Origin: a virus | Lineage: Duplodnaviria > Heunggongvirae > Uroviricota > Caudoviricetes | DNA: 64,000 nucleotides | Virus record (IMG/VR): IMGVR_UViG_2541047680_000004 | Direction: 5' to 3' (one strand) | Shown: positions 1-62,099 of the stretch, piece by piece | How the letters are laid out: every line of letters begins with the position of its first letter | Position numbering within the stretch: the first letter of the stretch is position 1 | Program-made: the position numbers and the translations under genes | Notes under the pieces: generated by a model | The model's input: the letters and a program-made list of their open reading frames with translations, nothing else | Databases searched by the model: none | What the model was told of the DNA's origin: nothing

Positions 1-263
1 ATGAACCTATTAATGTCACTTACTTTTACATCGGCAATGTGCGGCAAAACATGTATCAAAATACAATGAACAGCGATCTCTGGCCGACGTCTGGTTATCA
101 GCAGAGATAAGCGAGTGAATAACAGGAATGCGTCCGAGAATCTCATGTCATTGCTGACCTGGGAGATCATAACGGCCTGCATTTGAGATGCTCTTTCGAG
201 ATACTCTATCGCCTCTTTTGAGGTGTTCTCCGCAGCGCGTGCTCTGTCAAAGCTATTTTTCAT
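1..263 (-). CDS. hypothetical protein (N-terminal part only; gene runs off the left edge)
   Basis: Minus-strand ATG at 263 followed by open frame to window edge (MKNSFDRARAAENTSKEAIEYLERAS...). Confidence 0.25.
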   Translation of the reverse strand, partial: MKNSFDRARAAENTSKEAIEYLERASQMQAVMISQVSNDMRFSDAFLLFTRLSLLITRRRPEIAVHCILIHVLPHIADVKVSDINRF

Positions 264-473
264 ATGACAATCACCGAGTTACGCCGATGCACTGTATAAG
301 TAAACAGTATATTAGGCATAGATTCTTATAGGATCAAGAGTAAAAGTAACTCATTTTCAGCAATGATTCCATACATAGTAGGTATGGAATCATTTTGACG
401 TTGTTTTTTGAATTTTAAGGGAAATGGGAGTGAGTTTGGTGGGAATAAAAACGGCTCCTGTGAGCCGTTAAAA

Positions 474-719
474 TCAGAGGGTGCTGACGTATGCAGCCAG
501 TTCTGTGTATCCGCCAATCGGCTGGCCTTCGATCAGCACCTGGGGGATAGTCTCTACCGGTTTACCAACAATTTCACTTAGTTTTTCCTTGTCGATACCG
601 GCAGTGGTGATGTCGATGTACTCATAATCACCGTAGCCATGTCCCTTTAGTTGCTTCGCTAGCTCGACCGCACGTTTGCAGTATGAGCAGTTATCTCGTC
701 CGTAGATAGTGATCGTCAT
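474..719 (-). CDS. glutaredoxin-like protein
   Basis: MTITIYGRDNCSYCKRA... with CxxC redox motif and glutaredoxin-like length; track ORF 474..797 trimmed to the internal Met at 719. Confidence 0.65.
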   Translation of the reverse strand: MTITIYGRDNCSYCKRAVELAKQLKGHGYGDYEYIDITTAGIDKEKLSEIVGKPVETIPQVLIEGQPIGGYTELAAYVSTL

Positions 720-893
720 TGTTACCTCATAGAATTGATATGCAACTTTACTCACAAAGAAGATAGGTATGTGCATACTTATCTTTGCAGTCTGCATTAT
801 AAAGCTATTAAAGCCTCGATCAATCTATTAATTAAGGCATTGTTTGGTTAACATTACCCTAATATTTTATAGTTAGTAGAGTGAAATACATAC

Positions 894-2156
894 ATGCCTT
901 TTTTAATTTTCATTATTATACTACTGCTCACCGTGATTTTTTGGGATTGGGTTGTTTTAAATGGTCAAATTGTTGGAACATTGGCTACAGCATTTGCTTT
1001 TATAGCAACAGCATGGAATGCCTACGAAGCGAGAAAAAGTGCAAAAGCAGCTTTTTCAGCCCTTCAATTAACAACAGAATCATTGTTCGAAATGCGAAAG
1101 AGTGCATTTAAACAATGGTTTGATTCCTTATTAAATCAACATGATGAGCTATGTCTTCTTGCAAAACAAATTATCGATAAACGCAAAATTAATTTAAACA
1201 GCGATGAGTTACATAGACTATATTACCCATTGGTAAAACAGCATGAGGTAATACAGTATGTGAAGCATATTATTAATATTTTTGAGTATGTGGATAGTTC
1301 ATTTTATATTGATGGGGAATGTCTAAAGGAAAAAAGAGCGTATGTGTCACAATTAATTTTCAAAATCCCACCTCAGATGAAGTTGATCATTGCTATCTTT
1401 GGATTAAAGATCGATTATTGTGAACATATTAATTCGGGAAAACTGTGTTGTTTATTAAATAAATATGATTTTTTCAATGATGAAATATTTTTTGATGATG
1501 CTTATTCAGATATGCCTTATCTGGATGCATTCATAAACCTTAGATTCAACAAAATATTCAAATCTCGAATGATAAATTATTTTGATAATATCATTAAAAG
1601 TTATTATGTTCCATCGGACGTTAAAAGGGACTGGATGTTTCGAGACCCAAAGCTCGTACCGTCGGTTCTTATGAATTATAAAACTCCTTGTTCTCCTATA
1701 ATTAATGATTACTTTGAGAAGTTGCCTTTACATGTAAGAAACTACTTTGAGGAACTACTTAAAACCGCGAATGATAGAGTTACTCATTTTGACGTTTACA
1801 TCCCACGCCTTATTGGTTGTTCAATCGTGCAACATTACGAAGATGTGCCTTCCGAAAAAAACAGGTTAAATGACAGGAATGATGTAATAGCTATGGCTGA
1901 AGATTACATCGAGAAAAGAAAATCTAATCAACTAGATTACATACTTGAAGATATATACTTCAAGAGTGACGAAGATATAATCCCAGGCCACCATTTGATT
2001 GTGGCATTTGATGACTATGAATTTAAATTATCACTCATTAAGATAAATGAGAATAAAGATAGCGATAATCTTTTAAATCGAATTTATACTGAATCCAGTA
2101 GCATGGTTAAAGAATATAAGCGCGAAATATTAAAACTGGGCGACTATGTAAAGTAA
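894..2156 (+). CDS. hypothetical membrane protein (two N-terminal TM helices plus about 360-aa soluble domain), low-GC orphan
   Basis: 420-aa ORF, strongly AT-rich relative to surroundings, opposite strand to neighbours, own terminator downstream; N-terminus FLIFIIILLLTVIFWDWVV / IVGTLATAFAFIATAW hydrophobic. Confidence 0.6.
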   Translation: MPFLIFIIILLLTVIFWDWVVLNGQIVGTLATAFAFIATAWNAYEARKSAKAAFSALQLTTESLFEMRKSAFKQWFDSLLNQHDELCLLAKQIIDKRKINLNSDELHRLYYPLVKQHEVIQYVKHIINIFEYVDSSFYIDGECLKEKRAYVSQLIFKIPPQMKLIIAIFGLKIDYCEHINSGKLCCLLNKYDFFNDEIFFDDAYSDMPYLDAFINLRFNKIFKSRMINYFDNIIKSYYVPSDVKRDWMFRDPKLVPSVLMNYKTPCSPIINDYFEKLPLHVRNYFEELLKTANDRVTHFDVYIPRLIGCSIVQHYEDVPSEKNRLNDRNDVIAMAEDYIEKRKSNQLDYILEDIYFKSDEDIIPGHHLIVAFDDYEFKLSLIKINENKDSDNLLNRIYTESSSMVKEYKREILKLGDYVK

Positions 2157-2176
2157 ATTGCACTGTTCAACAAAAA

Positions 2177-2201
2177 AGGGGCCGAAGCCCCTTTGAATTT
2201 T
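2177..2201 (+). terminator. rho-independent terminator
   Basis: aggggccgaagcccct hairpin followed by T-rich tract immediately after the 894..2156 stop. Confidence 0.55.
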
Positions 2202-2348
2202 GCGCTGAAAAAAGTGTTGCTAGGATGTTAGCAAGCTATGGTTAAGAACGTCTGCCGTAATTATCTATCACAGCGTTGAGCGGTCTGGTTTATGTTAGCG
2301 GAGTCTTAATCGAGTTGATTAAAAGGCCAAACCGCTCAACGCTGTGTC

Positions 2349-2435
2349 TGGCGGAGAGTAATGGAATCGAACCATCATCGTTTGCACAATGGGACGGTTT
2401 TCAAGACCGCTTGAGCACCATGCTCCCTACTCTCC
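2349..2435 (-). tRNA. tRNA-Ser (anticodon UGA), class II
   Basis: Hand-folded: acceptor GGAGAGT/ACTCTCC, anticodon loop CTTGAAA, long variable arm, T-loop GGTTCGATTCC, discriminator G + encoded CCA; 87 nt. Confidence 0.75.
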
Positions 2436-2755
2436 AGCTATTGTGATGGTCGGTGCTGAACTCCGACACAGGGTTGTAGCAAGCCCCGCAAAGCGCGCAC
2501 TACTGTAGTTGCGGCACATCAGCCTGTGCATTCATCACAATGGTAAGATCACTACCTTTCGACCAGTCATTGTGCACATGAACGACGATTAACCGTAATG
2601 ATATTATCGTTGTGTTGTGAAGCCAGATGCTTATCTTCTGGTTGCTTCAAAGAGCTGCACTTCCTCACAACGGTAAGAGCACTGGTCTGACTCTATCGAT
2701 TTACGGCCTTGTGGGTCAGTATCGCCGATTCGCCCAATGCTCTTACCTGTTGTGT

Positions 2756-2831
2756 TGGTGCCGGTTAACGGACTTGAACCGCTGGCCATTCGCTTACAAA
2801 ACGACTGCTCTACCAACTGAGCTAAACCGGC
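2756..2831 (-). tRNA. tRNA-Thr (anticodon UGU)
   Basis: Acceptor GCCGGTT/AACCGGC, D-arm GCTCAGTTGGTAGAGC, anticodon loop TTTGTAA, T-loop GGTTCAAGTCC, encoded CCA; one mismatch at base of anticodon stem. Confidence 0.75.
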
Positions 2832-2835
2832 AATT

Positions 2836-2922
2836 TGGTGGGGAGTGATGGAGTCGAACCACCCGAGTCGCCATGACAGTAGATTTACAGTCTACACCGC
2901 TACCTCTACGGACTAACTCCCC
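2836..2922 (-). tRNA. tRNA-Tyr (anticodon GUA), class II
   Basis: Acceptor GGGGAGT/ACTCCCC, anticodon stem GTAGA/TCTAC with loop CTGTAAA, long variable arm, T-loop GGTTCGACTCC, encoded CCA; sequence differs from the E. coli host tRNA-Tyr. Confidence 0.8.
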
Positions 2923-2927
2923 TAAAT

Positions 2928-3002
2928 TGGCGATGGTGGGTGGATTCGAACCACCGACCAGTTGGTTAACAGCCAACTGCTCTACCGCTGAGCTACACCA
3001 TC
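2928..3002 (-). tRNA. tRNA-Asn (anticodon GUU)
   Basis: Perfect cloverleaf: acceptor GATGGTG/CACCATC, D-arm GCTCAGCGGTAGAGC, anticodon stem GTTGG/CCAAC with loop CTGTTAA, T-arm GGTGGTTCGAATCCACC, encoded CCA; differs from host tRNA-Asn. Confidence 0.85.
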
Positions 3003-3780
3003 AATTCAGCACTGCCAGTATTTATTACTCAACAGTGCCAATCGCGACGGTTTAGTTTCTGCCAGGAAACGCACCGCTACTTGCACTTTTCGTTAGTGCC
3101 AGACGCTTTCGACTTCGCTCAATAGTAGAAGGCAAAATCTTTAAGTAGATGATGTTTCTGAGGACAGCACCTACTTTGTAATTTATACAATGTGATGTAT
3201 GGAATCATTTGTTGTGAAAACAGGCACCAATGGCAACAGTGGTTAAACCTACACAACAATCCCGTCTTCACAACGTTGAGGCCACTACTCCGATTGAATG
3301 TTTGCCCAACATGTTACATATCAACGCTCGCCGGTATCTCTGTGAATAGAACCTTAGAATTGATAAAAATGTAATGGCCTCAACGTTGTGTGCTGGCTAA
3401 CCATACCAGCCGGGCTACGTCGCCGCTTTTTAACCCAGTATAAACGACATAATTGAACAAAATGACGTAACAGGATGGGCGGTCAGTGGCTAAGAATCCG
3501 GGAGTCATATGGAGTTGAAAATATACCAACCGCCCATTCTGTTACTTCATCGGAGGGAACATGAATGTTCCCTCCTGCGTTCTGCAATCACACTCGCTCA
3601 GTGTGTCCCATTTCGGTAACGAGGCTGGAAACTGACCTCGCTGGTGTTTGGCTTATTAGGCTACTGCCAGATAGACTTCTTCGTTTGCACTTGTATTTAA
3701 GTTCAAACAGTCGCGTCTCAACGAAAACAAAGTCATCTTATACACAAAAGATAAGTAAGTAAATACTTATCATTGTATTT

Positions 3781-4071: not shown

Positions 4072-4216
4072 TTTCTAACCTTTGTTTCATGAACTACCCG
4101 ATACACACGCTTTCCGATACACAGTGTTTTGGTTTTAAGTTCCTGCTTAATTAAATCACGACAGATGCCGAAGCCGATAAGGAAGCCACCCATAAAAGCT
4201 AATGAGATGTATGGAA

Positions 4217-12795: not shown

Positions 12796-13869
12796 GTGGA
12801 TATTGTCACCATGCGCATGAATAGACTTCCAGGATATGGCCTTCCCGAACTGGCTTTTTGGCCTCAGCCTAAATATGAACGGAATAAATGGTCGATGTTC
12901 TGTCTGAAACTCCGTAATGATGGAACCCTTGCTTGGTATCGGCGATATGTTGATCGTGGTATGCCAAACCACGCTGTTGATGACGACTACGATAACTATC
13001 CTGAAGCAAGAAAAGCGGCATTAGAGCTGAATAAAAACGTGAGCTTTGACATTGAAAAACTTCCTCTATCTATGTTTCAAAAGAAGTCATTGCGTTTGAA
13101 AGTTGACAAAGCACTCAAAGCCAAATCACGTCTCATGGATGAAGAGTATATAATGCTCAACGAAGCAATTAAGGCACACGCCAACGATCCGCGAGTGACA
13201 TTAAATGAGTTAATAATTAACCCAGATTACGAAACTTTGCGTCAACCCCTTTTTGACGTGCTAAGCGAGATGCCTTACTTACATTTTGTTTTTCTTCCCA
13301 AATTCCAAGTTTCACTTCAACTCGTTGCTCCTAACACTTGGGAATGTTCATATAACAACAAAGCTAAGACAGCGAAGATCTGCTACCAAGAACGCATAGC
13401 CAGAGGTTTTGGTTTATCAGGTGCTGCACATTGGGGAAAAACAAAAGCGACTATTCGCTCAATGCTTCTGCCGCGTGCTAACCGGTTACTGCAACTCGCC
13501 AGCGTAAAAAGAATGCTGGATGAAGCTCTCAGGAATGGGCAAAAGGTACTGGTTGTTGGCAACTTTGTTTTCTGGTTTGAGGACAAAAATCAGGTAGGTT
13601 GGAGTGTTAAAGTTGCTAGCGAAAGCGAAACCACCTCAAGAGGCAATACGCTCTGGAAAGAAGGAACTATCATTTCAAAAAATCACGGTCGAATTGTCGT
13701 GCTGCCGTATACAAAAGAAAACGGTAAACATGTAAAAGGTTATACCAAGAATGCCCCTAACGACGGCAATGCAATTCCTAGACATAAGGATGAGTATGTT
13801 GAGTTGCCCTTTGAAATTTTGGATGGTGACTTGATGTTCAGTCTGTTCGGTGAGCTTAACTACGAATAG
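12796..13869 (+). CDS. hypothetical protein (plus-strand orphan)
   Basis: 357-aa ORF with bidirectional hairpin terminator at 13,880-13,920. Confidence 0.45.
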   Translation: MDIVTMRMNRLPGYGLPELAFWPQPKYERNKWSMFCLKLRNDGTLAWYRRYVDRGMPNHAVDDDYDNYPEARKAALELNKNVSFDIEKLPLSMFQKKSLRLKVDKALKAKSRLMDEEYIMLNEAIKAHANDPRVTLNELIINPDYETLRQPLFDVLSEMPYLHFVFLPKFQVSLQLVAPNTWECSYNNKAKTAKICYQERIARGFGLSGAAHWGKTKATIRSMLLPRANRLLQLASVKRMLDEALRNGQKVLVVGNFVFWFEDKNQVGWSVKVASESETTSRGNTLWKEGTIISKNHGRIVVLPYTKENGKHVKGYTKNAPNDGNAIPRHKDEYVELPFEILDGDLMFSLFGELNYE

Positions 13870-13929: not shown

Positions 13930-14289
13930 TCAACCTTTCTTCATTAACTCGCGTTTAATTTCATCGGTACGCATCGTGACATCGGCAGCAGTGATCGCCT
14001 CGTTCAGCTTCACGATGTCCTCGATTTCCTGCGGTGTCTTCTCCGCAAGATGGAAAATAGCAGCACGAATCACATCAGAGCGGGTGAATTTCTCGAAGCG
14101 AGGGATGAACTTCATCATCTCCAGCAGTTCGAAGTATTCGTCTTCCAGTGACATTGTGCGGCTTTTAATTTTCTCTTTGCCACGAGTCGGGCGTCCCTGT
14201 GGTCTGACTGGTTGGCGCAAAGGAGTTGTGTTCTTAGCCGGTGCATCAGGCTCTTTGCGCTTTGCTAGGTCACCCATTTTCATGGACAT
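13930..14289 (-). CDS. putative ribbon-helix-helix centromere-binding protein (ParG-like)
   Basis: Small protein translationally coupled to parA; predicted beta-strand/helix/helix segment SRTMSLEDEYFELLEMM...RSDVIRAAIFHLAEK. Confidence 0.4.
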   Translation of the reverse strand: MSMKMGDLAKRKEPDAPAKNTTPLRQPVRPQGRPTRGKEKIKSRTMSLEDEYFELLEMMKFIPRFEKFTRSDVIRAAIFHLAEKTPQEIEDIVKLNEAITAADVTMRTDEIKRELMKKG

Positions 14290-14957
14290 TATTCTTCTTC
14301 CTCCAGACTCAACAGATAATCTACAAATTCTTCAAACTCGGCTTCCGCCTTTTTGTCGCGCTCGCTACCGGTCATTTCAAAGATAGAACGACCAGACTCT
14401 TCCGCATCATCATAGACGTTGCGGTTATATAGATTGACTGGCGCAGACTCGATGCCAAACGTCTCAACAATCTCTTTAGCCGCCAGAATGCGAGACACTT
14501 GTGATGGCAAAGCCGGGCACTGGTTCATGACCGCGCGGACCTTCACTTTATCGTTTACATTACGAACATTGTCGATAATAGGATCGATGTCACGCAGAGA
14601 TTTCAAATCACGACGCTTAGGACGAAGCGGGATAATGATAACGTCGGCCATCAGCATCGCTTGTCGCTGAATTTCGGAGTCAAAGCCACCAGCATCTACC
14701 ACTACATACTCAGCTCTACCCTGAAGCGATTTTAGGTGCTTAATGATGTCATCCTGAACGTATGCAAAAGGAATCAGCTCAAGGTCTTCGTTCTGTCGAC
14801 GGTCTTCACACCAGCTCGTTGTCGTGCGCTGAATATCTATATCGGTGATATAAACCTTCTTCTTCTTTTTGACTTTCAGGCAAACGGCAATTTGCTGGGC
14901 TACGGTGGATTTGCCTGGCCCGCCCTTTGTGCCGCCAACCACAAAGATCTTGGTCAT
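14289..14957 (-). CDS. parA: ParA-family partition ATPase (short, type Ib-like)
   Basis: Deviant Walker A GGTKGGPGKST, Walker B-like VVVDAGG; 222 aa. Confidence 0.75.
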   Translation of the reverse strand: MTKIFVVGGTKGGPGKSTVAQQIAVCLKVKKKKKVYITDIDIQRTTTSWCEDRRQNEDLELIPFAYVQDDIIKHLKSLQGRAEYVVVDAGGFDSEIQRQAMLMADVIIIPLRPKRRDLKSLRDIDPIIDNVRNVNDKVKVRAVMNQCPALPSQVSRILAAKEIVETFGIESAPVNLYNRNVYDDAEESGRSIFEMTGSERDKKAEAEFEEFVDYLLSLEEEE

Positions 14958-14992
14958 TGGAGAGTTCCCTTTGCGTATATAATTATCGTCTG

Positions 14993-15005
14993 AAACAACT
15001 TGTTT
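14993..15005. promoter_or_regulatory. palindromic operator-like site AAACA-N3-TGTTT upstream of parA
   Basis: aaacaacttgttt 36 bp upstream of parA start. Confidence 0.5.
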
Positions 15006-15105
15006 TCTTATATGTGATATAGCCTAAATGCCTACGGCTGTGGTGTAAAGGTTTAATGATAGGTACATAGGTGGGCTTAATAACAAAAAACCCGCCGTAG
15101 CGGGT

Positions 15106-16492: not shown

Positions 16493-16717
16493 TCATCGAC
16501 TCAGTTCAGGTGCCCCCCACTCACACAGCCTTTCACCTATCGTATTGTGGATAAGCAACTGTCGCTCCGTTTCCTCAGTCATAAAATCCTCTCTACTCAC
16601 ATAGATAGGATTTGCAGCATCGCAGAATAGCACGCCTGGAGCCTGCGTCTTAATCACGCACCCATTTATCAAACAGCTCGCGATGAACACCAGAGGCATC
16701 TTTTTGCCGCACTTCAT
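16493..16717 (-). CDS. o-spanin lipoprotein (Rz1-like), starting inside Rz in another frame
   Basis: MKCGKKMPLVFIAS-C lipobox; ORF begins within the Rz-like gene and extends past its stop. Confidence 0.45.
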   Translation of the reverse strand: MKCGKKMPLVFIASCLINGCVIKTQAPGVLFCDAANPIYVSREDFMTEETERQLLIHNTIGERLCEWGAPELSR

Positions 16718-16901
16718 TAACCGTTTCATTTTTGACATCCACTGTGCTTTGAAGTCGTTTTCTGTCTTCCTGTTTTGCCTTCTCTTCCATTGCTCGTCGC
16801 GCCGCATTCCCGCCCATCGTGTAAGCGCCGACCAGAACGAAAAGAACGGCAGCCAGCGTAATCAAAGCAACTTTTAGCTTTGTCATCAGGCTGCCTAGCA
16901 T
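16650..16901 (-). CDS. i-spanin (Rz-like)
   Basis: N-terminal TM helix then charged coiled-coil region; adjacent to endolysin. Confidence 0.55.
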   Translation of the reverse strand: MLGSLMTKLKVALITLAAVLFVLVGAYTMGGNAARRAMEEKAKQEDRKRLQSTVDVKNETVNEVRQKDASGVHRELFDKWVRD

Positions 16902-16902
16902 A

Positions 16903-17622
16903 TTAGACCATCCCTTTCTGGTGTTTTCTTACCTGCGACCAGGCAATGAATCCTGCCACAACAATAGTGGCAATACCGAAGATGATGCGTACTGTATCCC
17001 CGCTAGAGATATGACCTTGTGCTTTATCCATAGCAGCGGAAACCTGTGGCATAACATCGGCCAGCTGTGCCAGACCAATACCTGCTGTAACAGTTGCGCC
17101 TGCGGTTTCTTTAGTTACAGGAACAGCCTTCACGGTTTTCACCGGCTTAACGACGCCAGCTCGACGCAGACCTTCCTCAATAACTTCTGCCGCATACCAG
17201 GTGTTCAGCGTTTTTAGCGGACCTCGCCCATTCTCATGGCGAATGATTGCCTCAACCAAAGGTCGAAGGATGTCGTAATCATGCAGATCGATGATCATGT
17301 CTGCGGTTACACCAACGGCTTTAGACACCTCATTAATGTAGGCGTCAGTGTTGTTTTCATTCGGCGGTGCCCAACGTTCAATAACTTCACGAATGGTATC
17401 GATACTTGAGCCGTCTTTTGCGCGACGTTTGTCGTGGTAGGTAATTAGAGTCACCGCCAGCGCACGAATCCCCCAAACAGGGTCTTTAAACGTGCAAAAG
17501 CGCGGTTCGTCTGGATTCGCAACCAGACCTTGCCACGGTGATCCTTTATCAAGATTACCGGGGTTATTATTACGAATGCCTCTCGGAGTCTTCATCCTTG
17601 ATCTCCTGTTATTGCAGTCCAT
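16903..17622 (-). CDS. putative endolysin with C-terminal hydrophobic segment
   Basis: Position between holin-like and spanin genes; GIRNNNPGN motif region; C-terminal IIFGIATIVVAGFIAW helix. Confidence 0.45.
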   Translation of the reverse strand: MDCNNRRSRMKTPRGIRNNNPGNLDKGSPWQGLVANPDEPRFCTFKDPVWGIRALAVTLITYHDKRRAKDGSSIDTIREVIERWAPPNENNTDAYINEVSKAVGVTADMIIDLHDYDILRPLVEAIIRHENGRGPLKTLNTWYAAEVIEEGLRRAGVVKPVKTVKAVPVTKETAGATVTAGIGLAQLADVMPQVSAAMDKAQGHISSGDTVRIIFGIATIVVAGFIAWSQVRKHQKGMV

Positions 17623-17944
17623 TTTTTACGCCATACGCGGCTAACCCCAAAAGCAGTGCAGTAATAATGAACGACGTTATTTTAGAAACAATGCCGCCAA
17701 AGAACCCACTGGAGATGGAATCTAACCGGTTAAGGAGTTTGTCCAGATTGGAGTGTTGAATACTATGTTGCGCCGGGGTCATATCACCAAAGTAGGTTTT
17801 CAGCTGATCATTGACCTCTTGGCCAATTTCTTCACGTAGCTCTTTACCTAATTTACCAACAACCTCCCGAGCAACGATCGCGGCAATACGCTCAACTTGC
17901 TCTGTTGTAACGCCCGCCATCTCGTTCGACATATTTTCCTCCAT
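17609..17944 (-). CDS. putative holin / lysis membrane protein
   Basis: 111-aa protein with C-terminal TM helix (ITSFIITALLLGLAAYGV) immediately upstream of endolysin. Confidence 0.4.
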   Translation of the reverse strand: MEENMSNEMAGVTTEQVERIAAIVAREVVGKLGKELREEIGQEVNDQLKTYFGDMTPAQHSIQHSNLDKLLNRLDSISSGFFGGIVSKITSFIITALLLGLAAYGVKNGLQ

Positions 17945-47182: not shown

Positions 47183-47844
47183 AAATGAACCTCATCATGA
47201 CTACCATTGTGATATTCCACCTTCACGCGTTCTTTGTAGTGCTTGGTGATCTGCATATCCGGGCGCAGCGCGTTCTTCAGGTCTTCGTGAGTCGTCGCCA
47301 CCATTACCGTCGCACCAACCTTTCGAGCGGCACGCTGGAGGTTAGATGCCACAACCTGAGCGGTTACACGGTCTAGAACAGCACCGAACTCGTCAGCAGC
47401 CCACACTTTAGCGCCTGACTCAATCAGTTTGGCAATCTTGAGACGATATTTCTGACCGTCTGACATTTCAGAAGGCTTGCGAACAAACAGATATGCATCG
47501 TTCAGACCAGCCATAGATAACAACCCAAGCGCATCGCTGGTCGTTTTGCCCAACTGATCGATGACGTTAACCTCATTATCGAAGGTAAAATCATCGATGG
47601 AGGCTACAGACAGCCCTTCATCCTTCATCTGTCGTTGCAACTCGCGCAGCACAACGGATTTGCCGGAACCGGATTGGCCGGTGATGTACACCACATCGCC
47701 CTGCTTCACTTCCAGCTCCAGATTGTCGTAAAGCGTCCACTCTTTTTCGTCCAGGCCAAGCCCGAACGACTCAGCGATTTCCAACGTGCGCGTGGTTTTA
47801 TTTACGCGTGTCTGAAACGATACGTTGATGATGTATTTGCTCAT
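47179..47844 (-). CDS. stand-alone ABC-type ATPase (nucleotide-binding domain only)
   Basis: Walker A GQSGSGKS, signature-like MSDGQKYR, Walker B VWAADEF, H-loop TTHED. Confidence 0.65.
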   Translation of the reverse strand: MSKYIINVSFQTRVNKTTRTLEIAESFGLGLDEKEWTLYDNLELEVKQGDVVYITGQSGSGKSVVLRELQRQMKDEGLSVASIDDFTFDNEVNVIDQLGKTTSDALGLLSMAGLNDAYLFVRKPSEMSDGQKYRLKIAKLIESGAKVWAADEFGAVLDRVTAQVVASNLQRAARKVGATVMVATTHEDLKNALRPDMQITKHYKERVKVEYHNGSHDEVHL

Positions 47845-48542
47845 ACAGCCATCTCCCCGGAAGAGATCTTCTCCGCATATGCCACAAATGCGTCTACCCC
47901 GCTTTCTCCCGTCATTTCTTCCATGTGGGCAAGCAAATCACCAACAACAATGGCAGAGCCAGCAGGAAGCGTTTTAAAGCCCAATACGTCGACAACACGT
48001 ACTTCTTCCGCTGCAACTTCACGACTGATCTCGGTGTGTTCATCCTTCTGTCGTTTAGTTTCTTCGCCAAGATCGATAACTAGCGAGTCGGTGTCCATTT
48101 CTTCTGTCATGCTGCCAACGAGAACATTCAACTCACGCTCTTCAAAGCCGAAAACCTCGATATCGTCCAGAACAAGCGACTCAAGCTCTTTCTGTAGCTT
48201 AATTGCATCGTAATCAATGCTGGCAAGTCGGTTATCTTCAAGGCGCTTCGCACGAACCTCGTCATCACTGAGATCATCGCGAACAATAACCGGTACGCGC
48301 TCAAGTCCAGCAAAAATTGCAGCCTCACGGCGGCCGTGGCCAGTAATAATTACGTCGTTCTTATCGACCGTAATTGGCTGGTCAAATCCGCGCTTTTTAA
48401 TGGCTGCGGCTAGATCTCGGATCTGCTGTTCATCATGCTTTTTGGCATTCATCTCATAGGGAATAAGATCTGCCGGGTCGCGATATACGATTTCAAACTT
48501 TTTGGTCATTACATACGCTCCTTGTAGTAGTCGACCAGCCAC
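47841..48542 (-). CDS. ParB N-terminal domain (ParB/Srx-like) protein
   Basis: ITGHGRREAA motif resembling the ParB GxxRxxA box. Confidence 0.6.
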   Translation of the reverse strand: MAGRLLQGAYVMTKKFEIVYRDPADLIPYEMNAKKHDEQQIRDLAAAIKKRGFDQPITVDKNDVIITGHGRREAAIFAGLERVPVIVRDDLSDDEVRAKRLEDNRLASIDYDAIKLQKELESLVLDDIEVFGFEERELNVLVGSMTEEMDTDSLVIDLGEETKRQKDEHTEISREVAAEEVRVVDVLGFKTLPAGSAIVVGDLLAHMEEMTGESGVDAFVAYAEKISSGEMAV

Positions 48543-49207
48543 ACCAGAGCCTCACCAGCGTTCTCCATTTCATTACCGGTGTTAATAGCCTGCTCTTTGA
48601 TGATGTTTTTTATGGTTTCTGCAACACGATCTGACGCATCGAAAGTTACTTTGAAGCGCATGGTCTGATGTTCCGCCCCCACACGTTCGGTTTTCTCTCG
48701 TTTGTCGGTATCGACAGGCTCATCACTACCACGAGACAACGCCTCCAGTGCTTCAAGGTCGATTGCCGCCTCTTTTGCTAAAACCATCGAGATTTCGTCG
48801 TCATACGGGGCGATTTCAGACAGTTGATAGTCAAGTTCTGACTGAATTTCTTCAATGAAGCGTTGCAATGCGATTTGGTCGTCTTCACCGTATCGCTCGT
48901 TGTCCACCAGTGACATCTGTTTAGCTACGACATCGCTAATTTTGCCCACAGAAAGCACTGGAACCGTTGAAATTCCTTGCTCAATAGCGGCACGCCAGCG
49001 ATGTTCGCCGCCGAGGATTTCAAAAAATCCATCTTCAAGTTCACGAGCCAAAATTGGCTTAAAAAAGCCCAATTTTTCGATAGAACCTTTCAGTTTTTCA
49101 AAATTCTGCGCACCAACCGAATTGGTGTTCCAGGTATTCGGGCGAAGGTTGGCAACATCAACCTGCAAAATCGTGATTTTTACATCCATTTTATTGCTAC
49201 AATCCAC
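48509..49207 (-). CDS. ParB N-terminal domain (ParB/Srx-like) protein
   Basis: ILGGEHRWRAA motif resembling the ParB GxxRxxA box. Confidence 0.6.
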   Translation of the reverse strand: MDCSNKMDVKITILQVDVANLRPNTWNTNSVGAQNFEKLKGSIEKLGFFKPILARELEDGFFEILGGEHRWRAAIEQGISTVPVLSVGKISDVVAKQMSLVDNERYGEDDQIALQRFIEEIQSELDYQLSEIAPYDDEISMVLAKEAAIDLEALEALSRGSDEPVDTDKREKTERVGAEHQTMRFKVTFDASDRVAETIKNIIKEQAINTGNEMENAGEALVWLVDYYKERM

Positions 49208-51180: not shown

Positions 51181-51603
51181 ATGAAATACTCGCTTCTCCC
51201 TCTACTAACGTTACCAGTGTTGATGCTTACCGCGTGCCAATCACGCCCAATATCAATCCATGACGCCAAACCAGCACCGCAGGCCAAAGTGTTCAAGTAT
51301 CAAAGCGCAGCGCCAGCTACGTTGGTGGTAATGAGAGACACAGGTTTTGTAGGAGCTGGATGTGATGCTTCCATTTTCATCAACGGCGAAACTGTCGCAA
51401 AACTGGCTACAGGCGAAAAAGCGACTTTCCATTTAAATGCCGGAGAATTAATTGTGGGTGCATCTCTTGAAGGTGCAGGTTTATGTGCTCTAAACCCCGC
51501 TCGTCAAGAGCGAGAAACGACTCTGAAGAATGGAGACACAAAAGCGTTCAGGGTGTTCACCAGCAATTCTGGTGACATCGACATTCTGCCAACAACTCTG
51601 TGA
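51181..51603 (+). CDS. lipoprotein
   Basis: Signal peptide MKYSLLPLLTLPVLMLTA-C lipobox. Confidence 0.55.
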   Translation: MKYSLLPLLTLPVLMLTACQSRPISIHDAKPAPQAKVFKYQSAAPATLVVMRDTGFVGAGCDASIFINGETVAKLATGEKATFHLNAGELIVGASLEGAGLCALNPARQERETTLKNGDTKAFRVFTSNSGDIDILPTTL

Positions 51604-51607
51604 TGAC

Positions 51608-52132
51608 ATGACAACCAAAGATATTACCTACGGTATCCAAGCTGAACTCTGGCCGCGAGATTACACTAACGTTGAAAAACTACTGATGTTCTGGCGCAGA
51701 GAACAAATTCCTGTAAGGGTCACTCTCGAAGATGGCCAGGCGTTTTGCATGTACGTTTATGGCCTCATGCCATCTCGTAACAAAGTTGACCTTTGCCCAG
51801 CCCCTTTTGACAAAGAAAATCGTATAAGGCTCCCACTTGAACGCATTAGTACAATTGAATCAGGTGTGGTTGACAGTATCGCTCACGATTTCAAAGGTCG
51901 ACTAACAGTTCACCCTGATTATGTCGATAATCGGCCATCACGCCGCGATTTTTTTGCAATTTGCAACCAAGCCTACAAAGCAAACAAATCTATAAGGGTG
52001 TACATGGCGGATGGCCGTGAAATTGAGGGGGTGTCAGCAGGCGCAGATGCTTGTCAGGTTACACTACGTGTCGAGAACGGTAGAAAAATAGTTGTTTTGT
52101 TCGATTGGGTTGAACGAATTTTGCCTTTTTGA
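51608..52132 (+). CDS. hypothetical protein
   Basis: 175-aa ORF (internal Met with reasonable spacing after lipoprotein stop). Confidence 0.45.
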   Translation: MTTKDITYGIQAELWPRDYTNVEKLLMFWRREQIPVRVTLEDGQAFCMYVYGLMPSRNKVDLCPAPFDKENRIRLPLERISTIESGVVDSIAHDFKGRLTVHPDYVDNRPSRRDFFAICNQAYKANKSIRVYMADGREIEGVSAGADACQVTLRVENGRKIVVLFDWVERILPF

Positions 52133-54978: not shown

Positions 54979-55328
54979 GATTAATTCCTTATCGTAAATA
55001 ACAAATTGTTTTCTTGTTGGTGTTAATTATCGTTGTACGAATAAGGCGTCAAAGTGGAAAGTTGCGGTAGCCGGACGGGAACAGGTGGGTTTGTCGGTTG
55101 CCTGGAGGTAAGAGGTTGGTGTTTTTAGCCTGCGGGAAACAGGATGGTCATTTAAGGCCACCAATGCTGATGGCCTTAATAATTATCGACCGATTACGCT
55201 AAGGATCTTTTCCTCAACTGATTTGTTGTTGCGACTAAACTGCCTTGCGTATCTGATGACAGAAGAGGCGTTTTGCTTTCTGACCATCTCGGCTCTTTCC
55301 TTCAGGCGTTTCTTGAAATCGCCCATAT

Positions 55329-56808: not shown

Positions 56809-57138
56809 TTACTCGAATACTTCAAGAAACTCCTGAACGTCCCAATGCTGGACGAGGTGAAGATAGACCTTAGAAATCACGTCATTTTCGCTATCGCATG
56901 TGAAGTAGTACTTCTGGCTGCGGTTGTATGTGTCCACACAAAATTCGCTCATATCCATAAAGTCAGCATCTTCACCCATGTCGCAAATCATCAAAGCAGG
57001 TGCATCATCACGAGTCATCAGCTCCAGCACCCATCTTGAATTAATCAGAGTGGAAGACCAACCTTCCAGCTCATAGAACTGGTCAAACTCTTTTTGAGTT
57101 AATTTCTTGATTTGGTTGATGTCGATATTTGCAAACAT
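56809..57138 (-). CDS. small acidic protein (small-gene cassette 5)
   Basis: 109 aa with about 22 Asp/Glu; ATG at 57,138 is 13 bp downstream of palindrome 57,151-57,163. Confidence 0.45.
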   Translation of the reverse strand: MFANIDINQIKKLTQKEFDQFYELEGWSSTLINSRWVLELMTRDDAPALMICDMGEDADFMDMSEFCVDTYNRSQKYYFTCDSENDVISKVYLHLVQHWDVQEFLEVFE

Positions 57139-57150
57139 AAAGCAATCCTT

Positions 57151-57163
57151 AAACAACATGTTT
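57151..57163. promoter_or_regulatory. palindromic operator-like site AAACA-N3-TGTTT
   Basis: aaacaacatgttt. Confidence 0.5.
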
Positions 57164-57499
57164 TCTTGATGGTGTTATTATCGCAATAACGCACAGGCGA
57201 AAAAGGATTTTATTCCGGTGAATATGGTTTTGGCAGTGAGTTTTCAGGTTCAGTACCGAGTATACTTTTTACATTATTCTGATTTAGTGGCCGAAGGTGG
57301 CTGGTGGGCAGAATAATCCTCTCCCCGAAAACCTACTGAAATCGATTGTGACCCGTTGGCTGTCTGGCACAATTACGCTGTAGCTGGGCATTCAGAGGGA
57401 ATCCAGCGGTAAGCAAGTCCGCCTACGTGAGCGCCTCTCTTCTTCCCGCACATTACAGGTGGGTAGCCGCAACTCTCCCTCTCGCTATACCGGTACGCC

Positions 57500-57635
57500 G
57501 CCGTTCCTGAACCGGCATCGAGCCTTTTCCCGAAATCCACACAGGCAACTCGACCGTTTCCCTGAAAACCTCCAGCCGTTCCCCGAAGGCAACCCAGCCT
57601 TTTCTGTAGCGGGATGCAACCTTTTCCCTGTATGG
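57500..57635. repeat. iteron cluster B (6 direct repeats, about 22-bp period, consensus CCGTTTCCCGAAA)
   Basis: gccgttcctgaacc, gccttttcccgaaa, accgtttccctgaaaa, gccgttccccgaagg, gccttttctgtagc, accttttccctgta at about 57,501, 57,524, 57,555, 57,576, 57,598, 57,621. Confidence 0.65.
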
Positions 57636-57749
57636 ACCGAAGGCTGACCGTAGGGGTTTTACGGGGGATAAAATCAGGAGTTGAATAAATACGAAAAAGG
57701 AGGCGACACCCCTCCTTCCCTCCCCACTTATACATACCTGGCTTCTTCG

Positions 57750-58600
57750 CTATACATGTTGTGTTTTCTTCGTGTTTTATCTGTCTCAACCTCTCTATAG
57801 GCGTTAATGCTCACTCCTTCCAGAACCTTCTATACGGCGACTATTTCTGTTGGTGAATTGGGTGTGTTGTTCTCTCTGTCGGTGTATGTGGTTTCGTTCG
57901 TTTTGCGGTGGTTCTTCTATGGGGTGTTCTCGTCGTTTTGGTGATTGTTCTTCTCCGTGTATGGAGTAATGGCAGGTGGGCGATTCCTTTCGTTATTGTG
58001 TTTGAGTTGTTTGTCTGGAGTGTGTGAAAGGCTTTTGTAGTTATTCGTGTATTGGGTAATGGCGTTTCCCGTGATTGTTATGTTTCGTGTCTTTTGGGAT
58101 TGAGAGAAACCTTGCGGTTACAGGCTTCGTTGGGGTTTCAGTGATTCTGGTGTTTCTTCGCTGTTTGGGTAATGGCGTGTCGTGGGTATCGCGCGTATGA
58201 ATGTTTTCGGATTGCCTGTGAAAGTTAGGTTGGTTGTCCGGTAGCCTGGGGAGAAGAGGTGGGTCTTTTCGGTAGCCTGCCATAAAGAGGTTGGTTGTTT
58301 TGGGTAATGGTATATGTGTTATTTAGTTGTTTTGTTATGCCTGAAAATAAGTTGTTTATATGGTTGTGTAACGCAACGGGAGCGATTTTGAGCGTGTGTT
58401 TTTGTTGGTAGTGTGTTGAGTCGTCTGTGGTGAAAATTGGACGCTGTGGCGCTATCTGCTGCGTAGAATTACGGGTATAAGAAGTGATGTGTGATAACGT
58501 CAATTTTTTAGACCAAATCGGGAGAAAGCGTTGATGTTTCGTTGATCTGTTATTTAGTTGTTTTCTTATTGGTATAAACAACCATAACCTATTGATATTT
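57750..58600. repeat. GT-skewed non-coding tract with short dispersed repeats
   Basis: Plus strand almost devoid of C-runs, rich in G/T; repeated tgggtaatgg (x4), gttatttagttgtttt (x2), ggtagcctg...agaggttgg (also at 55,060-55,130). Confidence 0.55.
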
Positions 58601-58700
58601 AATGATGTGATTGCTGGTATGGGAGGGGAGTAGTGGCGATCAACGGGTTCTTATAGAAAAGAATCAAATTGTGACCGCCATTATCAATAAGTTGCAACCG

Positions 58701-59306
58701 TTAGTTGTTCAGATAAACATTTGGAACACGGACGTAGAACTTACTGTTACCGGTAAGTTCCAGAGTAATGTTAATGTCATTACCATTGTCTAGTGTAGCC
58801 GTCGCTCTATAGAACTTATCAGTTACCTTTTCGTCAATATTAACCTTGATGCATTTCGCCGCAGTAGAACCATTATGCTCTTTCAGAATAGTTGTCACGA
58901 CAGGACATGCGGCTTCCTCAATGACGCCATCTTCCTGTTTCGGTATTACAATGAAGAATACGTAAGCCAGCAAGGTAACGACTATAATAAATGGCAGTCT
59001 ACTGCTCTTTGTTATAGTCGCACGCTTCCATAGGTAGATTGGCATGAAAACTATTCCCCATAAAATAGCAGGTGGCTCATAGCCGGATTCCGAAATCGCC
59101 ATTCTGTCAGCCACTAATAATCCGATGGCAGCTAAACTTCCAATTAATACAGCATAATTTGCATACTCTTCGTTCGGAATGCCGAAGCAAATTGGAATAA
59201 AAGCTAAAATCCACGCATAAGTGTTATTCAAAGGTTTTTTTTGTTGGTTATTGGTTTCCATCACATCCATCTCATCACTTAAATTACTTGTATATATTAT
59301 CAACAT
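58701..59306 (-). CDS. hypothetical integral membrane protein
   Basis: About 4 predicted TM helices then soluble C-terminal domain; 201 aa. Confidence 0.45.
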   Translation of the reverse strand: MLIIYTSNLSDEMDVMETNNQQKKPLNNTYAWILAFIPICFGIPNEEYANYAVLIGSLAAIGLLVADRMAISESGYEPPAILWGIVFMPIYLWKRATITKSSRLPFIIVVTLLAYVFFIVIPKQEDGVIEEAACPVVTTILKEHNGSTAAKCIKVNIDEKVTDKFYRATATLDNGNDINITLELTGNSKFYVRVPNVYLNN

Positions 59307-59382
59307 TTAACAAACATAACCTAAACACACAGCAGATATAGCATTACAAACTCATTGTGAAAACCATTATCATAGGAAACGA

Positions 59383-59568
59383 TTAGATGAGATGGTCTAA
59401 TTCATCATCTATCATGGCTTTGACGCTGGAGTCATTCACTCCATATTTATTTATGAGCTGTTTCAGCTCTGGCGAAAACTGAAGGTAGATATCGTGAGCG
59501 TTTTTCACTGTAGGTTCAACGCCACGCATTTCAAGCGCCTTTAGTAGATATGAGTCTTCTTTAAGCAT
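59383..59568 (-). CDS. hypothetical small protein
   Basis: 61-aa ORF. Confidence 0.3.
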   Translation of the reverse strand: MLKEDSYLLKALEMRGVEPTVKNAHDIYLQFSPELKQLINKYGVNDSSVKAMIDDELDHLI

Positions 59569-59604
59569 AAATTCTCCGTTATCTAGTATGAAGCGATTGC
59601 CGGA

Positions 59605-59904
59605 TTACCATTGCCAGCACTCAAGCCCTTCAACGACCGGTGCGCCACAATCAAAATGTACAGAGTCAAAGCCTACATCAAGTACTTTCTGAATGTTCGC
59701 AATCGCGCCCTCGGATATACCATATCGACGCAACTCATCTATCCAGTCATCGTCCTGTAACCCGGCGTGGACAATGCAACCGTACTCAATTTGTGAAACC
59801 CAATCCAGCTCATTGCTTGCGATCATGAATCGGCGAGCATCTTCCTCTGATGTATGAGATGAGCTGATCAATGCCACCTGGTAGGCTTGGGTAATGTTCA
59901 ACAT
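59605..59904 (-). CDS. hypothetical protein
   Basis: ORF with ATG at 59,904 located 14 bp downstream of operator palindrome 59,918-59,930. Confidence 0.4.
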   Translation of the reverse strand: MLNITQAYQVALISSSHTSEEDARRFMIASNELDWVSQIEYGCIVHAGLQDDDWIDELRRYGISEGAIANIQKVLDVGFDSVHFDCGAPVVEGLECWQW

Positions 59905-59917
59905 TTCAACCACTCCA

Positions 59918-59981
59918 AAACAAGTTGTTTTCTTATGTGGTTTATTATCTCCATCAACAAAAGGCAGAAAACATATTGTTT
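59918..59981. promoter_or_regulatory. two AAACA-N3-TGTTT operator-like palindromes at the right edge of the element
   Basis: aaacaagttgttt (59,918-59,930) and aaacatattgttt (59,969-59,981). Confidence 0.5.
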
Positions 59982-60015
59982 TAGGTACTGTGTAAATCAG
60001 AAGGGATTGTGTCTA

Positions 60016-60045
60016 TATGAAAATGCCCGGCGTGTTGCCGGGCAT
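60016..60045 (-). terminator. rho-independent terminator of metG
   Basis: atgcccggcgtgttgccgggcat hairpin followed by T-tract on the minus strand, about 20 bp past the metG stop. Confidence 0.6.
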
Positions 60046-60065
60046 TGCGAAGAGAGGTTGTTTAA

Positions 60066-62099
60066 TTACTTAACCTGGTGGCCAGGTTTAGCACCAGCAT
60101 CCGGGCTTAACAGGAAGATATCTTTCCCGCCGGGGCCAGCAGCCATCACCATGCCTTCAGAGATACCGAAGCGCATTTTACGCGGAGCCAGGTTAGCCAC
60201 CATAATTGTGTGACGACCAATCAGTGCCTGTGGGTCTGGATAAGCAGAACGGATGCCTGAGAAGACATTACGCTTTTCACCACCGAGATCCAGCGTCAGG
60301 CGCAGCAGCTTGTCAGAACCTTCAACAAACTCTGCGTTTTCAATCAGCGCCACGCGCAGGTCAACTTTAGCGAAGTCGTCAAAGGTGATGGTTTCCTGAA
60401 TCGGGTCGTCTGCCAGTGGGCCAGTTACCGGTGCGGCTGTGGCTTTCACTTCTTCTTTGGATGCTTCCACCAGTGCTTCCACCTGTTTCATATCGATACG
60501 GTTATACAATGCCTTGAACGGATTCACTTTATGGCCCAGCAGCGGTTGCTGGATACCATCCCAGGTCAGTTCTGTATTCAGGAATGCTTCTGCACGTTCA
60601 GTCAGTTTCGGCAGTACCGGTTTCAAGTAAGTCATCAGCACGCGGAACAGGTTAATGCCCATAGAGCAAATCGCCTGCAGATCGGCATCGCGTCCTTCCT
60701 GCTTCGCCACCACCCACGGAGCCTGTTCATCAACATAGCGGTTAGCCAGGTCAGCCAGTGCCATGATTTCACGGATAGCTTTACCAAATTCGCGGCTTTC
60801 CCATGCTTCGCCAATCACTTCAGCGGCATCAGTAAAGGTTTTGTACAGTTGCGGGTCAGCCAGTTCGCTTGCCAGCACGCCGTCAAAACGCTTGTTGATA
60901 AAGCCTGCATTACGGGAGGCCAGGTTAACCACTTTGTTCACGATATCGGCATTCACGCGCTGAACGAAATCCTCCAGGTTGAGATCGATATCATCAATGC
61001 GCGAAGAGAGTTTCGCAGTGTAGTAGTAACGCAGGCTGTCGGCGTCAAAATGATTCAGCCAGGTGCTGGCTTTAATAAAGGTACCGCGAGACTTAGACAT
61101 CTTCGCGCCGTTCACCGTCACATAGCCATGAACAAACAGGTTGGTCGGCTTGCGGAAGTTGCTGCCTTCCAGCATTGCTGGCCAGAACAGACTGTGGAAG
61201 TAAACAATATCTTTACCGATGAAGTGGTACAGCTCGGCGGTGGAGTCTTTCTTCCAGTATTCATCGAAGCTTACGCTGTCGCCGCGCTTGTCGCACAGAT
61301 TCTTGAAAGAACCCATATAGCCAATCGGCGCATCTAGCCAGACGTAGAAATATTTACCCGGCGCGTTCGGAATTTCAAAACCGAAATACGGCGCGTCGCG
61401 GGAGATATCCCACTGTTGCAGGCCAGATTCAAACCACTCCTGCATTTTATTTGCCACCTGCTCCTGCAACGCACCGCTGCGGGTCCATGCCTGCAACATT
61501 TCGCTGAAAGAGGGCAGATCAAAGAAGAAGTGTTCAGAATCACGCATTACCGGCGTAGCGCCAGAAACCACCGATTTCGGCTCGATCAATTCAGTCGGGC
61601 TGTAGGTCGCGCCGCAGACTTCGCAGTTATCGCCGTATTGATCCGGGGATTTACATTTCGGGCAGGTGCCTTTCACAAAACGATCCGGCAGGAACATGCC
61701 TTTTTCCGGGTCGTACAACTGAGAGATAGTGCGATTTTTAATAAAACCGTTCTCTTTCAGGCGAGTATAGATAAGCTCAGACAACTGACGGTTCTCTTCG
61801 CTGTGCGTCGAGTGATAGTTGTCATAGCTGATGTTAAAGCCTGCGAAATCAGTCTGGTGTTCCTGACTCATTTCGCCAATCATCTGCTCCGGTGTGATAC
61901 CAAGTTGCTGTGCTTTCAGCATGATCGGCGTACCGTGGGCATCGTCGGCACAGATGAAATTAACCTCGTGGCCGCGCATTCGCTGGTAACGAACCCAGAC
62001 ATCAGCCTGGATGTGCTCCAGCATATGGCCGAGGTGGATTGAGCCGTTAGCGTACGGCAGCGCGCACGTCACCAGAATTTTCTTCGCGACTTGGGTCAT
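60066..62099 (-). CDS. metG: methionyl-tRNA synthetase
   Basis: 677-aa product beginning [26 protein letters not shown] (HIGH motif) with KMSKS motif, matching enterobacterial MetG as recalled from memory; track ORF 60066..62228 has a spurious N-terminal extension. Confidence 0.95.

Follow-up and report, generated by a model that had tools for sequence, protein, structure and literature searches.

The question raised by this locus is whether a viral element ends where a bacterial housekeeping gene begins. The window—that is, the whole 64,000-nucleotide stretch analyzed here, from IMG/VR virus record IMGVR_UViG_2541047680_000004 (Caudoviricetes)—carries siphovirus virion genes together with plasmid partition genes and, near its right end, metG, which encodes methionyl-tRNA synthetase (MetRS), in divergent orientation to apbC (mrp), which encodes an Fe–S cluster carrier. 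A first-pass annotation had taken the element to end abruptly at metG, directly abutting core chromosomal genes, and had proposed either an integrase beyond the left edge or a phage-plasmid that had been inserted or co-assembled there. The analysis described below instead indicates, with high confidence, that the window is part of a probably circular, low-copy phage-plasmid of about 110 kb of the SSU5/pECOH89/pLF82 (Cyrano) type of Escherichia coli, in which metG and apbC are internal cargo and metG recombines with its host counterpart. This confidence extends to the identity, anatomy, and recombination of the element, but not to the physiological role of its cargo.

When window positions 57000–64000 were compared by megablast with 5,426 complete E. 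coli genomes, the whole 7 kb was matched in 191 genomes at 95–98% identity, the top-ranked matches listed all being circular plasmids of 100–126 kb, and the metG portion of the query was matched in all 5,426 genomes. In the same collection, the head genes were found in 237 genomes, their 247 matches all lying on plasmids and none on a chromosome, and plasmid-borne metG occurred in 220 places. A 3.4-kb query spanning metG and apbC recovered from PLSDB 201 plasmids with at least 80% of the query matched, from E. coli, Shigella, E. albertii, and E. fergusonii; the PLSDB matches outside Escherichia and Shigella were chromosome-like records at ~83%. Among phages, Escherichia phages CMS-2020a, PhiR41_1, and Cyrano match at 94–98%, and the virion genes show 79–81% nucleotide identity to those of Klebsiella phage-plasmids and Salmonella phage SSU5 (81% over ~10 kb for the latter). 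Over its left third, the window matches pECOH89 (NC_023916) and its relatives, and it contains a siphovirus module for head, tail, and packaging that is homologous to the one in SSU5, as judged from nucleotide identity and PHROGs. Thus, the first-pass view of a phage-plasmid of the SSU5/pHCM2 type, not a lambdoid prophage, is borne out by both the phage and plasmid matches and the plasmid-only head genes, and the comparison with that group which it had suggested yields SSU5-like relatives at 79–98% nucleotide identity.

The closest of these relatives, namely pECOH89, p09EL50, pLF82 (= phage Cyrano, OV696614), PhiR41_1, and CMS-2020a, are 94–100% identical in nucleotide sequence in the regions searched (virion, replication, and accessory). 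The pECOH89/pLF82 lineage has a gene order in common with the window, including the tyrosine recombinase, grxA, tRNA cluster, ParA, ParB/Srx pair, metG–apbC, and humD-like gene, and the window differs only by its alleles and by other genes in two variable slots (894–2156 and 12796–13869). In contrast to pECOH89, it lacks ISEcp1/blaCTX-M-15 (PMC3999498). Cyrano has been described as a plasmid present at 5.5 copies per chromosome and forming siphovirus particles, with virions induced 39-fold by ciprofloxacin (PMC9928086). Salmonella phage SSU5, pHCM2, and the Klebsiella, Citrobacter, and Enterobacter SSU5-like phage-plasmids have a homologous virion module (79–81% nucleotide identity) and a like architecture, but lack metG–apbC.

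The boundary proposed at metG does not hold, because the phage-plasmid backbone flanks metG–apbC on both sides. Beyond apbC, it resumes at 63395 with a HumD/UmuD′-like S24 peptidase gene (63395–63784 on the minus strand, within the region 63395–63820; Pfam Peptidase_S24), and the stretch from 57000 to 64000 is collinear with circular plasmids, the same order being found on the plasmids of the 191 complete E. coli genomes and in phages Cyrano, PhiR41_1, and CMS-2020a. In the circular plasmid NZ_OZ501614 (111,205 bp), which is collinear without gaps with window positions 59500–64000 at 97.2% identity, the RefSeq annotation places metG and apbC within the plasmid, with a DUF5983 operon on one side and a HumD-type S24 peptidase on the other, the latter followed by ead/Ea22, rnhA, dam, dfrA51, thyA, and nrdAB. 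The element therefore continues past 60,066, and metG–apbC is a 3.4-kb cassette of enterobacterial chromosomal origin inside the element, not a junction with the chromosome. Public records already contain the element and its cargo, both annotated.

The cassette occupies a variable slot of the backbone (59996–63394). The last backbone elements before it are two operator-like palindromes (59917–59931 and 59968–59982) upstream of the leftward DUF5983 operon, and after it a near-consensus LexA box (TGCTGTATATGCATACAGTA, 63801–63820; one match against none expected) lies 17 nt upstream of the S24/HumD-like gene, such that the cassette sits between an operator-controlled leftward operon and a LexA-controlled humD-like gene. 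The Cyrano homologue of the latter gene, CYRAN_98, has higher values in the later data columns of the LF82 supplementary table, the conditions of those columns being unchecked (PMC9928086). In relatives, the content of the slot differs. Homology to the metG-less E. coli phage-plasmid NZ_CP141793 runs to ~59995 and returns at 63395, with a DUF4145 gene and its own hairpin in between; Citrobacter pCF5125-1 has ydfZ and an LprI gene in the slot; and in a Klebsiella relative, the slot encodes, among others, an HD/PDEase-domain protein whose annotation is that of a ppGpp pyrophosphohydrolase/synthetase homologue. The cassette is carried by ~80–93% of the E. coli family members, with other genes in the slot of the remaining ~7–20%, and it is kept despite changed left or right neighbors, including in a reduced 63.8-kb E. 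albertii plasmid. A search with the concatenated flanks gave no exact empty site, only replacement of the cassette, and the target duplication that the first-pass annotation had proposed to look for at the insertion point was not visible in the breakpoint alignments with NZ_CP141793 at ~59995 and 63395.

An ordinary prophage integrated beside metG, whose attR would lie at ~60 kb and whose integrase and attL would be outside the window on the left, would agree with two observations: metG and apbC are likewise divergent neighbors on the E. coli chromosome, and a tyrosine recombinase gene straddles the left edge. The latter gene is represented in the window by its 5′ end (1–263, minus strand), which encodes the first 87 residues of a 367-residue protein and differs at one of these from WP_000797846 in NZ_CP031136, where a 367-residue "site-specific integrase" ends 263 bp into the region matching the window start; the complete protein matches Pfam Phage_integrase. 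The reported lack of an integrase is thus an edge effect, and the guess that one lies beyond the left edge was literally correct. However, the recombinase fragment is not accompanied by an element boundary of the kind expected of a prophage bounded by attL and attR. Furthermore, in relatives ~43 kb of backbone lie between the recombinase and the cassette, and the circular plasmid that carries both encodes a RepB initiator of its own. In NZ_OZ501614, whose annotation holds a RepB-type initiator, the recombinase, and the tRNAs, the RepB-family initiator gene spans the record origin, ~17 kb to the left of the window start and outside the window. Given that members of the family are invariably found as plasmids, a role of the recombinase in resolving plasmid multimers is more likely, by analogy with Cre, which resolves multimers of phage P1.

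The cassette ends point the same way. Alignment with the K-12 chromosome showed homology to be confined between the stop codons of metG and mrp/apbC, and yehF/DUF4132 and yehE, which flank metG–apbC on every chromosome examined, are absent from the window. The K-12 metG terminator is likewise absent, the alignment breaking at the stop codon. The terminator that the first-pass annotation had placed at 60,016–60,045 was missed by a simple terminator scan, but folding confirmed an intrinsic hairpin at 60022–60046 on the minus strand (ΔG −19.1 kcal/mol, z −5.6), which is non-homologous to that of K-12 metG; plasmid-type terminators were found in no locus among the matches listed in a contig scan with MetG. 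Taking these ends together with the backbone on both sides of metG–apbC and the absence of chromosomal matches among the 247 of the head genes, a prophage at metG is exceedingly improbable.

Misassembly, in which a phage-plasmid contig would have been joined falsely to chromosomal metG through the similarity of the two metG copies, deserves attention since such products do occur among IMG/VR drafts. Many draft contigs end inside metG. In two others (L092 and L114), chromosomal yehF and the 3′ part of metG are joined to the 5′ part of a plasmid metG, apbC, and the backbone, and one more (L101) carries three tandem partial metG–apbC modules; these hybrid contigs may be assembly artefacts or real cointegrates. 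Thus, the co-assembly worry is reasonable in general, but it is inapplicable to the 64-kb window. The window contains no chromosomal flank, its cassette flanks, terminator, intergenic region, and apbC (82% identical to that of the host) are all of plasmid type, and it is collinear not only with NZ_OZ501614 but also with about 200 independently assembled circular plasmids. A chimeric origin of the window is accordingly hardly credible.

The two genes of the cassette do not diverge alike from their chromosomal counterparts. Nucleotide identity to K-12 is 94.6% for metG, 66% for the intergenic region, and 81.8% for apbC, and the synonymous divergence (dS) from K-12 is 0.27 for metG and 1.65 for apbC. 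The value for metG is like that between K-12 and a cryptic Escherichia clade, and the value for apbC exceeds that between K-12 and Salmonella (1.36); the nonsynonymous divergence (dN) of apbC is 0.032 (dN/dS 0.02), and its third-position GC content (GC3) is 0.51, compared with 0.62 in K-12. Comparison of 24 plasmid with 9 chromosomal alleles gave 7 fixed differences and 103 shared polymorphisms in metG, 43 and 0 in the intergenic region, and 114 and 10 in apbC, and nucleotide diversity (pi) among the plasmid copies is 3.3%, 0.4%, and 1.6%, respectively. The chromosomal metG alleles of this comparison (L002, L120, L122, and L127–L132) are of unusually high diversity (pi 2.8%), in a deliberately spread sample.

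Within metG, chromosome-like sites form blocks, which lie at different places in different plasmid copies. Tracts identical to a chromosomal allele extend over 257 nt in the window (61426–61682, compared with L122) and 950 nt in a hybrid contig, and one identical to K-12 over 344 nt in a complete 108-kb plasmid (L106). The number of state switches along the gene lies below that in permutations of the sites (z −3.3), and the Hudson–Kaplan minimum number of recombination events (Rm) among the plasmid copies is 66. A haplotype built from the plasmid-specific metG alleles is only ~90% identical to K-12, with a GC3 of 0.56, which suggests that plasmid metG was once far more divergent and has since been overwritten in part. 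As judged from these allele comparisons, metG, but hardly apbC or the intergenic region, exchanges sequence with the host chromosomal metG by homologous recombination, such that each plasmid copy is a different mosaic; the 103 polymorphisms common to the chromosomal and plasmid alleles suggest flow from the phage-plasmid into the chromosome as well.

The same data could in principle be explained with no ongoing recombination at all, if metG and apbC had been captured together from an unsampled Escherichia-like donor and had retained ancestral polymorphisms while evolving at differing rates. Indeed, metG generally evolves more slowly than apbC (dS between K-12 and E1V33 of 0.28 and 0.58, respectively), and the spatial clustering of chromosome-like sites reaches only a z of about −3. 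However, the ratio of apbC to metG divergence is about twice that between chromosomes, and the distribution of shared and fixed sites is reversed between metG and its two neighbors. In addition, the plasmid copies differ in metG as much from one another as from chromosomes, at a diversity far above that of the adjacent intergenic region, and tracts of 257–950 nt are identical to particular chromosomal alleles. Together with the Rm value, these observations make an account without recombination very unlikely. No donor was found in the MetG contig scan, the matches listed being K-12-like and cryptic-clade Escherichia, Citrobacter, Salmonella, and others, with no E. albertii or E. fergusonii chromosomes among them; and no closer ApbC was found among 5.8 billion proteins, the best non-plasmid clusters being 94–95% identical (E. 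coli, Salmonella).

The simplest reading of the mosaic is one of recurrent exchange with the host metG continuing long after capture. The pair would have been acquired in a single ancient event of illegitimate recombination or aberrant excision and would then have undergone AT-biased divergence; exchange would have remained limited to metG because metG stayed similar enough to the host gene for recombination, and apbC and the spacer did not. A further, rather unlikely proposal is that metG acts as a portable homology arm, through which the phage-plasmid repeatedly integrates and excises by RecA-dependent crossovers within metG. If so, entry at one point and exit at another would leave just such patchworks as are observed in both plasmid and chromosomal alleles, the hybrid contigs L092 and L114 would be real cointegrate junctions, not assembly artefacts, and the element would be a transient chromosomal passenger, a reservoir of divergent alleles for an essential host gene, and possibly a transducer of the metG neighborhood.

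What, then, does the cassette encode, and why is it kept? The metG gene (60066–62099, minus strand) encodes a full-length MetRS of 677 residues (Pfam tRNA-synt_1g, 6.7e-166; Anticodon_3; tRNA_bind), which by its motifs—HLGH at residue 22, KMSKS at 333, the zinc knuckle CPKC/CEVC, and a C-terminal tRNA-binding domain—is predicted to be a class I enzyme. It differs from the K-12 protein at 5 residues, and the MetRS proteins of phages Cyrano, PhiR41_1, and CMS-2020a are 99.3–99.4% identical to it. The apbC product (62257–63357, plus strand; 366 residues; Pfam PF10609, 2.4e-102), with a Walker A motif GKGGVGKS at residue 112 and a CSNC motif at 280, is predicted to be a P-loop NTPase of the ApbC/Mrp Fe–S carrier family. 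In the divergent promoter region between the two genes (62100–62256), ~75 nt beside metG are K-12-like and the rest is divergent; the cassette thus retains the chromosomal divergent gene pair together with the metG promoter.

Both reading frames are intact in 26 of the 26 copies examined. Polymorphism among the plasmid copies amounts to 155 synonymous and 13 nonsynonymous sites in metG and 97 and 5 in apbC, the pairwise dN/dS of the plasmid genes is 0.01–0.03, and among several copies the dN of apbC is 0 at a dS of up to 0.13. Polymorphism so overwhelmingly synonymous is consistent with purifying selection. In strain LF82, which carries pLF82 (= Cyrano), the ApbC homologue CYRAN_99, annotated as MinD-like and listed as a moron, is transcribed 9-fold above the prophage background, and in the supplementary table the MetRS homologue CYRAN_100 has ~16 units, compared with ~92 for CYRAN_99 (PMC9928086).

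The cassette could be kept because a plasmid-borne MetRS and Fe–S carrier benefits the element or its host, which is the weakest step of the proposed scheme. A dosage benefit for translation and Fe–S-dependent enzymes is plausible, and such support of translation and Fe–S-dependent metabolism might act during plasmid carriage or lytic growth. Since the MetRS is nearly identical to the host enzyme, any benefit from it would be one of dosage only. The family is rich in genes for nucleotide metabolism and replication and also has translation-related functions, including four tRNAs in the window; furthermore, a small alarmone hydrolase of SSU5 reverses tRNA pyrophosphorylation (bioRxiv 10.1101/2024.07.05.602228). 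The role of plasmid metG as a general replacement for a lost chromosomal metG was considered and rejected: all 5,426 genomes match metG, with 5,422 places chromosomal. One chromosome, that of E. coli HN68 (NZ_CP141844; L132), has a metG with a 13-bp deletion (nt 1648–1660) causing a frameshift just before the C-terminal tRNA-binding domain, and this metG is annotated as a pseudogene.

Alternatively, the cassette may be a neutral hitchhiker, that is, the fossil of a capture resembling specialized transduction, kept intact only because the essential chromosomal copy keeps repairing it by gene conversion. Such conversion from a gene under selection could indeed keep metG intact, the MetRS transcript is low in LF82, and ~7–20% of the family do without the cassette. 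However, apbC is little converted, given its 114 fixed differences, yet it too is intact in all copies, with the strong excess of synonymous changes noted above, an absence of nonsynonymous change among several diverged copies, and transcription well above background; and the cassette has been kept in the reduced E. albertii plasmid and despite changing flanks. Neutral hitchhiking is thus unlikely.

Several points weigh against the reading of a circular phage-plasmid with recombining and beneficial cargo. The extrachromosomal circular state is known from relatives found as circular plasmids, and for the source molecule of the window itself it is presumed from them. The 9 chromosomal alleles were chosen along an identity gradient, which inflates chromosomal diversity, and they do not include E. 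albertii and E. fergusonii alleles as possible donors; moreover, the clustering statistic is modest, and part of the shared polymorphism could be old. Many polymorphisms of the plasmid copies were imported from chromosomes on which selection had already filtered them, which weakens the argument from dN/dS within plasmids. As to a putative benefit of the cargo, the MetRS differs from that of the host by only ~5 conservative residues, and its transcript is low in LF82, although the count may be too low because reads also map to a 95%-identical paralogue.

Plasmid maintenance functions are also encoded in the window. A ParA/MinD-type ATPase (14289–14957, minus strand; Pfam AAA_31, MipZ, CbiA, and ParA) is followed by a 119-residue partner of unassigned family (13930–14289, minus strand), an operator palindrome lies beside the pair (14992–15006; palindrome scan), and two ParB_N-domain proteins are encoded at 47841–49207 (Pfam), such that both a ParA-type ATPase and ParB_N-domain proteins are at hand for plasmid partition. 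Of the ParA/RHH pair claimed earlier, the ParA half was confirmed with Pfam, but the RHH half was not: the 119-residue partner matched no Pfam family and, in PHROGs, only PHROG 5111, of unknown function. The operator palindrome AAAACAAnTTGTTTT occurs in 9 copies with at most one mismatch, compared with 0.41 expected from shuffles. All but the last are just upstream of minus-strand genes, and the last copy (59968–59982) and that at 59917 are both upstream of the DUF5983 gene; the earlier observation that these palindromes persist to 59,981 therefore stands. The iteron arrays do not: Tandem Repeats Finder and repeat scans of the window revealed no clean array, but only loose, degenerate direct repeats of ~30 nt at 55065–55153, 57500–57626, and 58239–58300. 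The region 57140–58700, ~1.5 kb free of coding sequences in the RefSeq annotation of relatives, contains several families of such degenerate ~30-nt direct repeats, which are probably what had been called iterons. The 58–60 kb bin around it is G- and T-skewed on the plus strand, and the region is ~69–73% conserved in the Citrobacter and the metG-less E. coli plasmid and 92–97% in metG-carrying copies.

The claim of a virion and lysis system was upheld by PHROGs, with terminase, portal, major head, Ig-domain major-tail-like, tape measure, central fiber, endolysin, and Rz-like spanin genes all found. The virion module (19178–45820, minus strand), also apparent in the RefSeq annotation of NZ_OZ501614 and 79–98% identical in nucleotide sequence to SSU5-like phages and phage-plasmids, encodes tail fibers, central fiber J, the tape measure protein, an Ig-domain major-tail-like protein, the major head protein, the portal, the large terminase, and a DNA-binding small-terminase candidate. 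The central tail fiber gene contains a 99-nt tandem repeat at 24586–24803 (2.2 copies, 77% matches), and the distal fiber gene (19178–23476) a long Ala/Ser-rich low-complexity stretch. The lysis module (16493–17944, minus strand; PHROGs) comprises the Rz-like spanin (16650–16901), the endolysin (16903–17622), and a small membrane protein of unassigned family (17609–17944), all on the minus strand. The tRNA cluster (Ser-UGA, Thr-UGU, Tyr-GUA, and Asn-GUU; 2349–3002, minus strand) was detected with ARAGORN, with three of the four also found by Rfam, whose scan of the window gave tRNAs only; the cluster is annotated in NZ_OZ501614 as well, and the pECOH89 announcement gives two tRNAs only, Thr and Asn (PMC3999498). 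A 200-residue protein (51530–52129, plus strand), hypothetical in RefSeq relatives, matches Pfam Flag1_repress (FljA, phase-1 flagellin repressor; E 2.5e-84), and such a repressor, encoded on a phage-plasmid, could affect the motility of the host or its expression of H antigen. The variable slots 894–2156 and 12796–13869 (both plus strand) encode proteins of 420 and 357 residues with no convincing Pfam match. In relatives, these slots carry an AbiGi-family gene pair (NZ_OZ501614) or a P-loop NTPase (NZ_CP031136), and they may be hotspots for defense-type cargo.

Among known systems, lambda gal/bio-type specialized transducing phages and morons likewise carry adjacent host genes with their own promoter and terminators in a temperate phage, expressed in the lysogen. 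In contrast, the carrier of metG–apbC is a plasmid-prophage with no known attachment site beside metG, and the capture is old, as seen from the 82% identity of apbC to that of the host, and fixed in a widespread lineage, unlike a defective transducer of the laboratory type. Virus-encoded aminoacyl-tRNA synthetases, known from giant viruses and a few large phages (e.g., metG of Microcystis phage MaAM05), similarly comprise full-length MetRS accompanied by tRNA genes; however, the window enzyme is 99% identical to the host protein and recombines with the host copy, whereas other phage MetRS matches reach 23–66%. Phage P1 is also a plasmid prophage; it has a HumD-type S24 peptidase gene under LexA control and the Cre/lox tyrosine recombinase, which does not need a role in chromosomal integration. 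The element described here resembles P1 in being a plasmid prophage with a HumD-type S24 peptidase gene and a tyrosine recombinase, but the virions (myovirus in P1, siphovirus here) and replication modules are unrelated, and P1 lacks metG–apbC. The humD-like gene itself matches hundreds of plasmid records at 80–90%, most of which lack SSU5-type flanks and look P1-sized. A literature search on SSU5 and phage-plasmids with metG, MetRS, tRNA synthetase, or apbC did not turn up any discussion of the cassette; it is unmentioned in the pECOH89 announcement (PMC3999498), and the ApbC homologue appears among the morons of Misson et al. under its MinD-like name (PMC9928086).

For genome scanning, the lesson is that the presence of a housekeeping gene beside phage genes is no sign that a mobile element ends there. 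The family occurs in ~4% of complete E. coli genomes, and the second metG that most of its members bring confuses assemblers, with draft contigs breaking or becoming chimeric inside metG, and could mislead prophage-boundary callers, MLST-like typing, and copy-number analyses. With the element and its cargo already on record, the residual interest lies in the mosaic structure of metG, as it shows that a phage-plasmid and an essential host gene continue to recombine. Overall, a temperate phage-plasmid has long retained two housekeeping genes of host origin, of which metG remains in exchange with the essential chromosomal gene; the cassette offers a natural system for measuring recombination between a mobile element and a core gene, and for asking why a phage keeps a MetRS and an Fe–S carrier.

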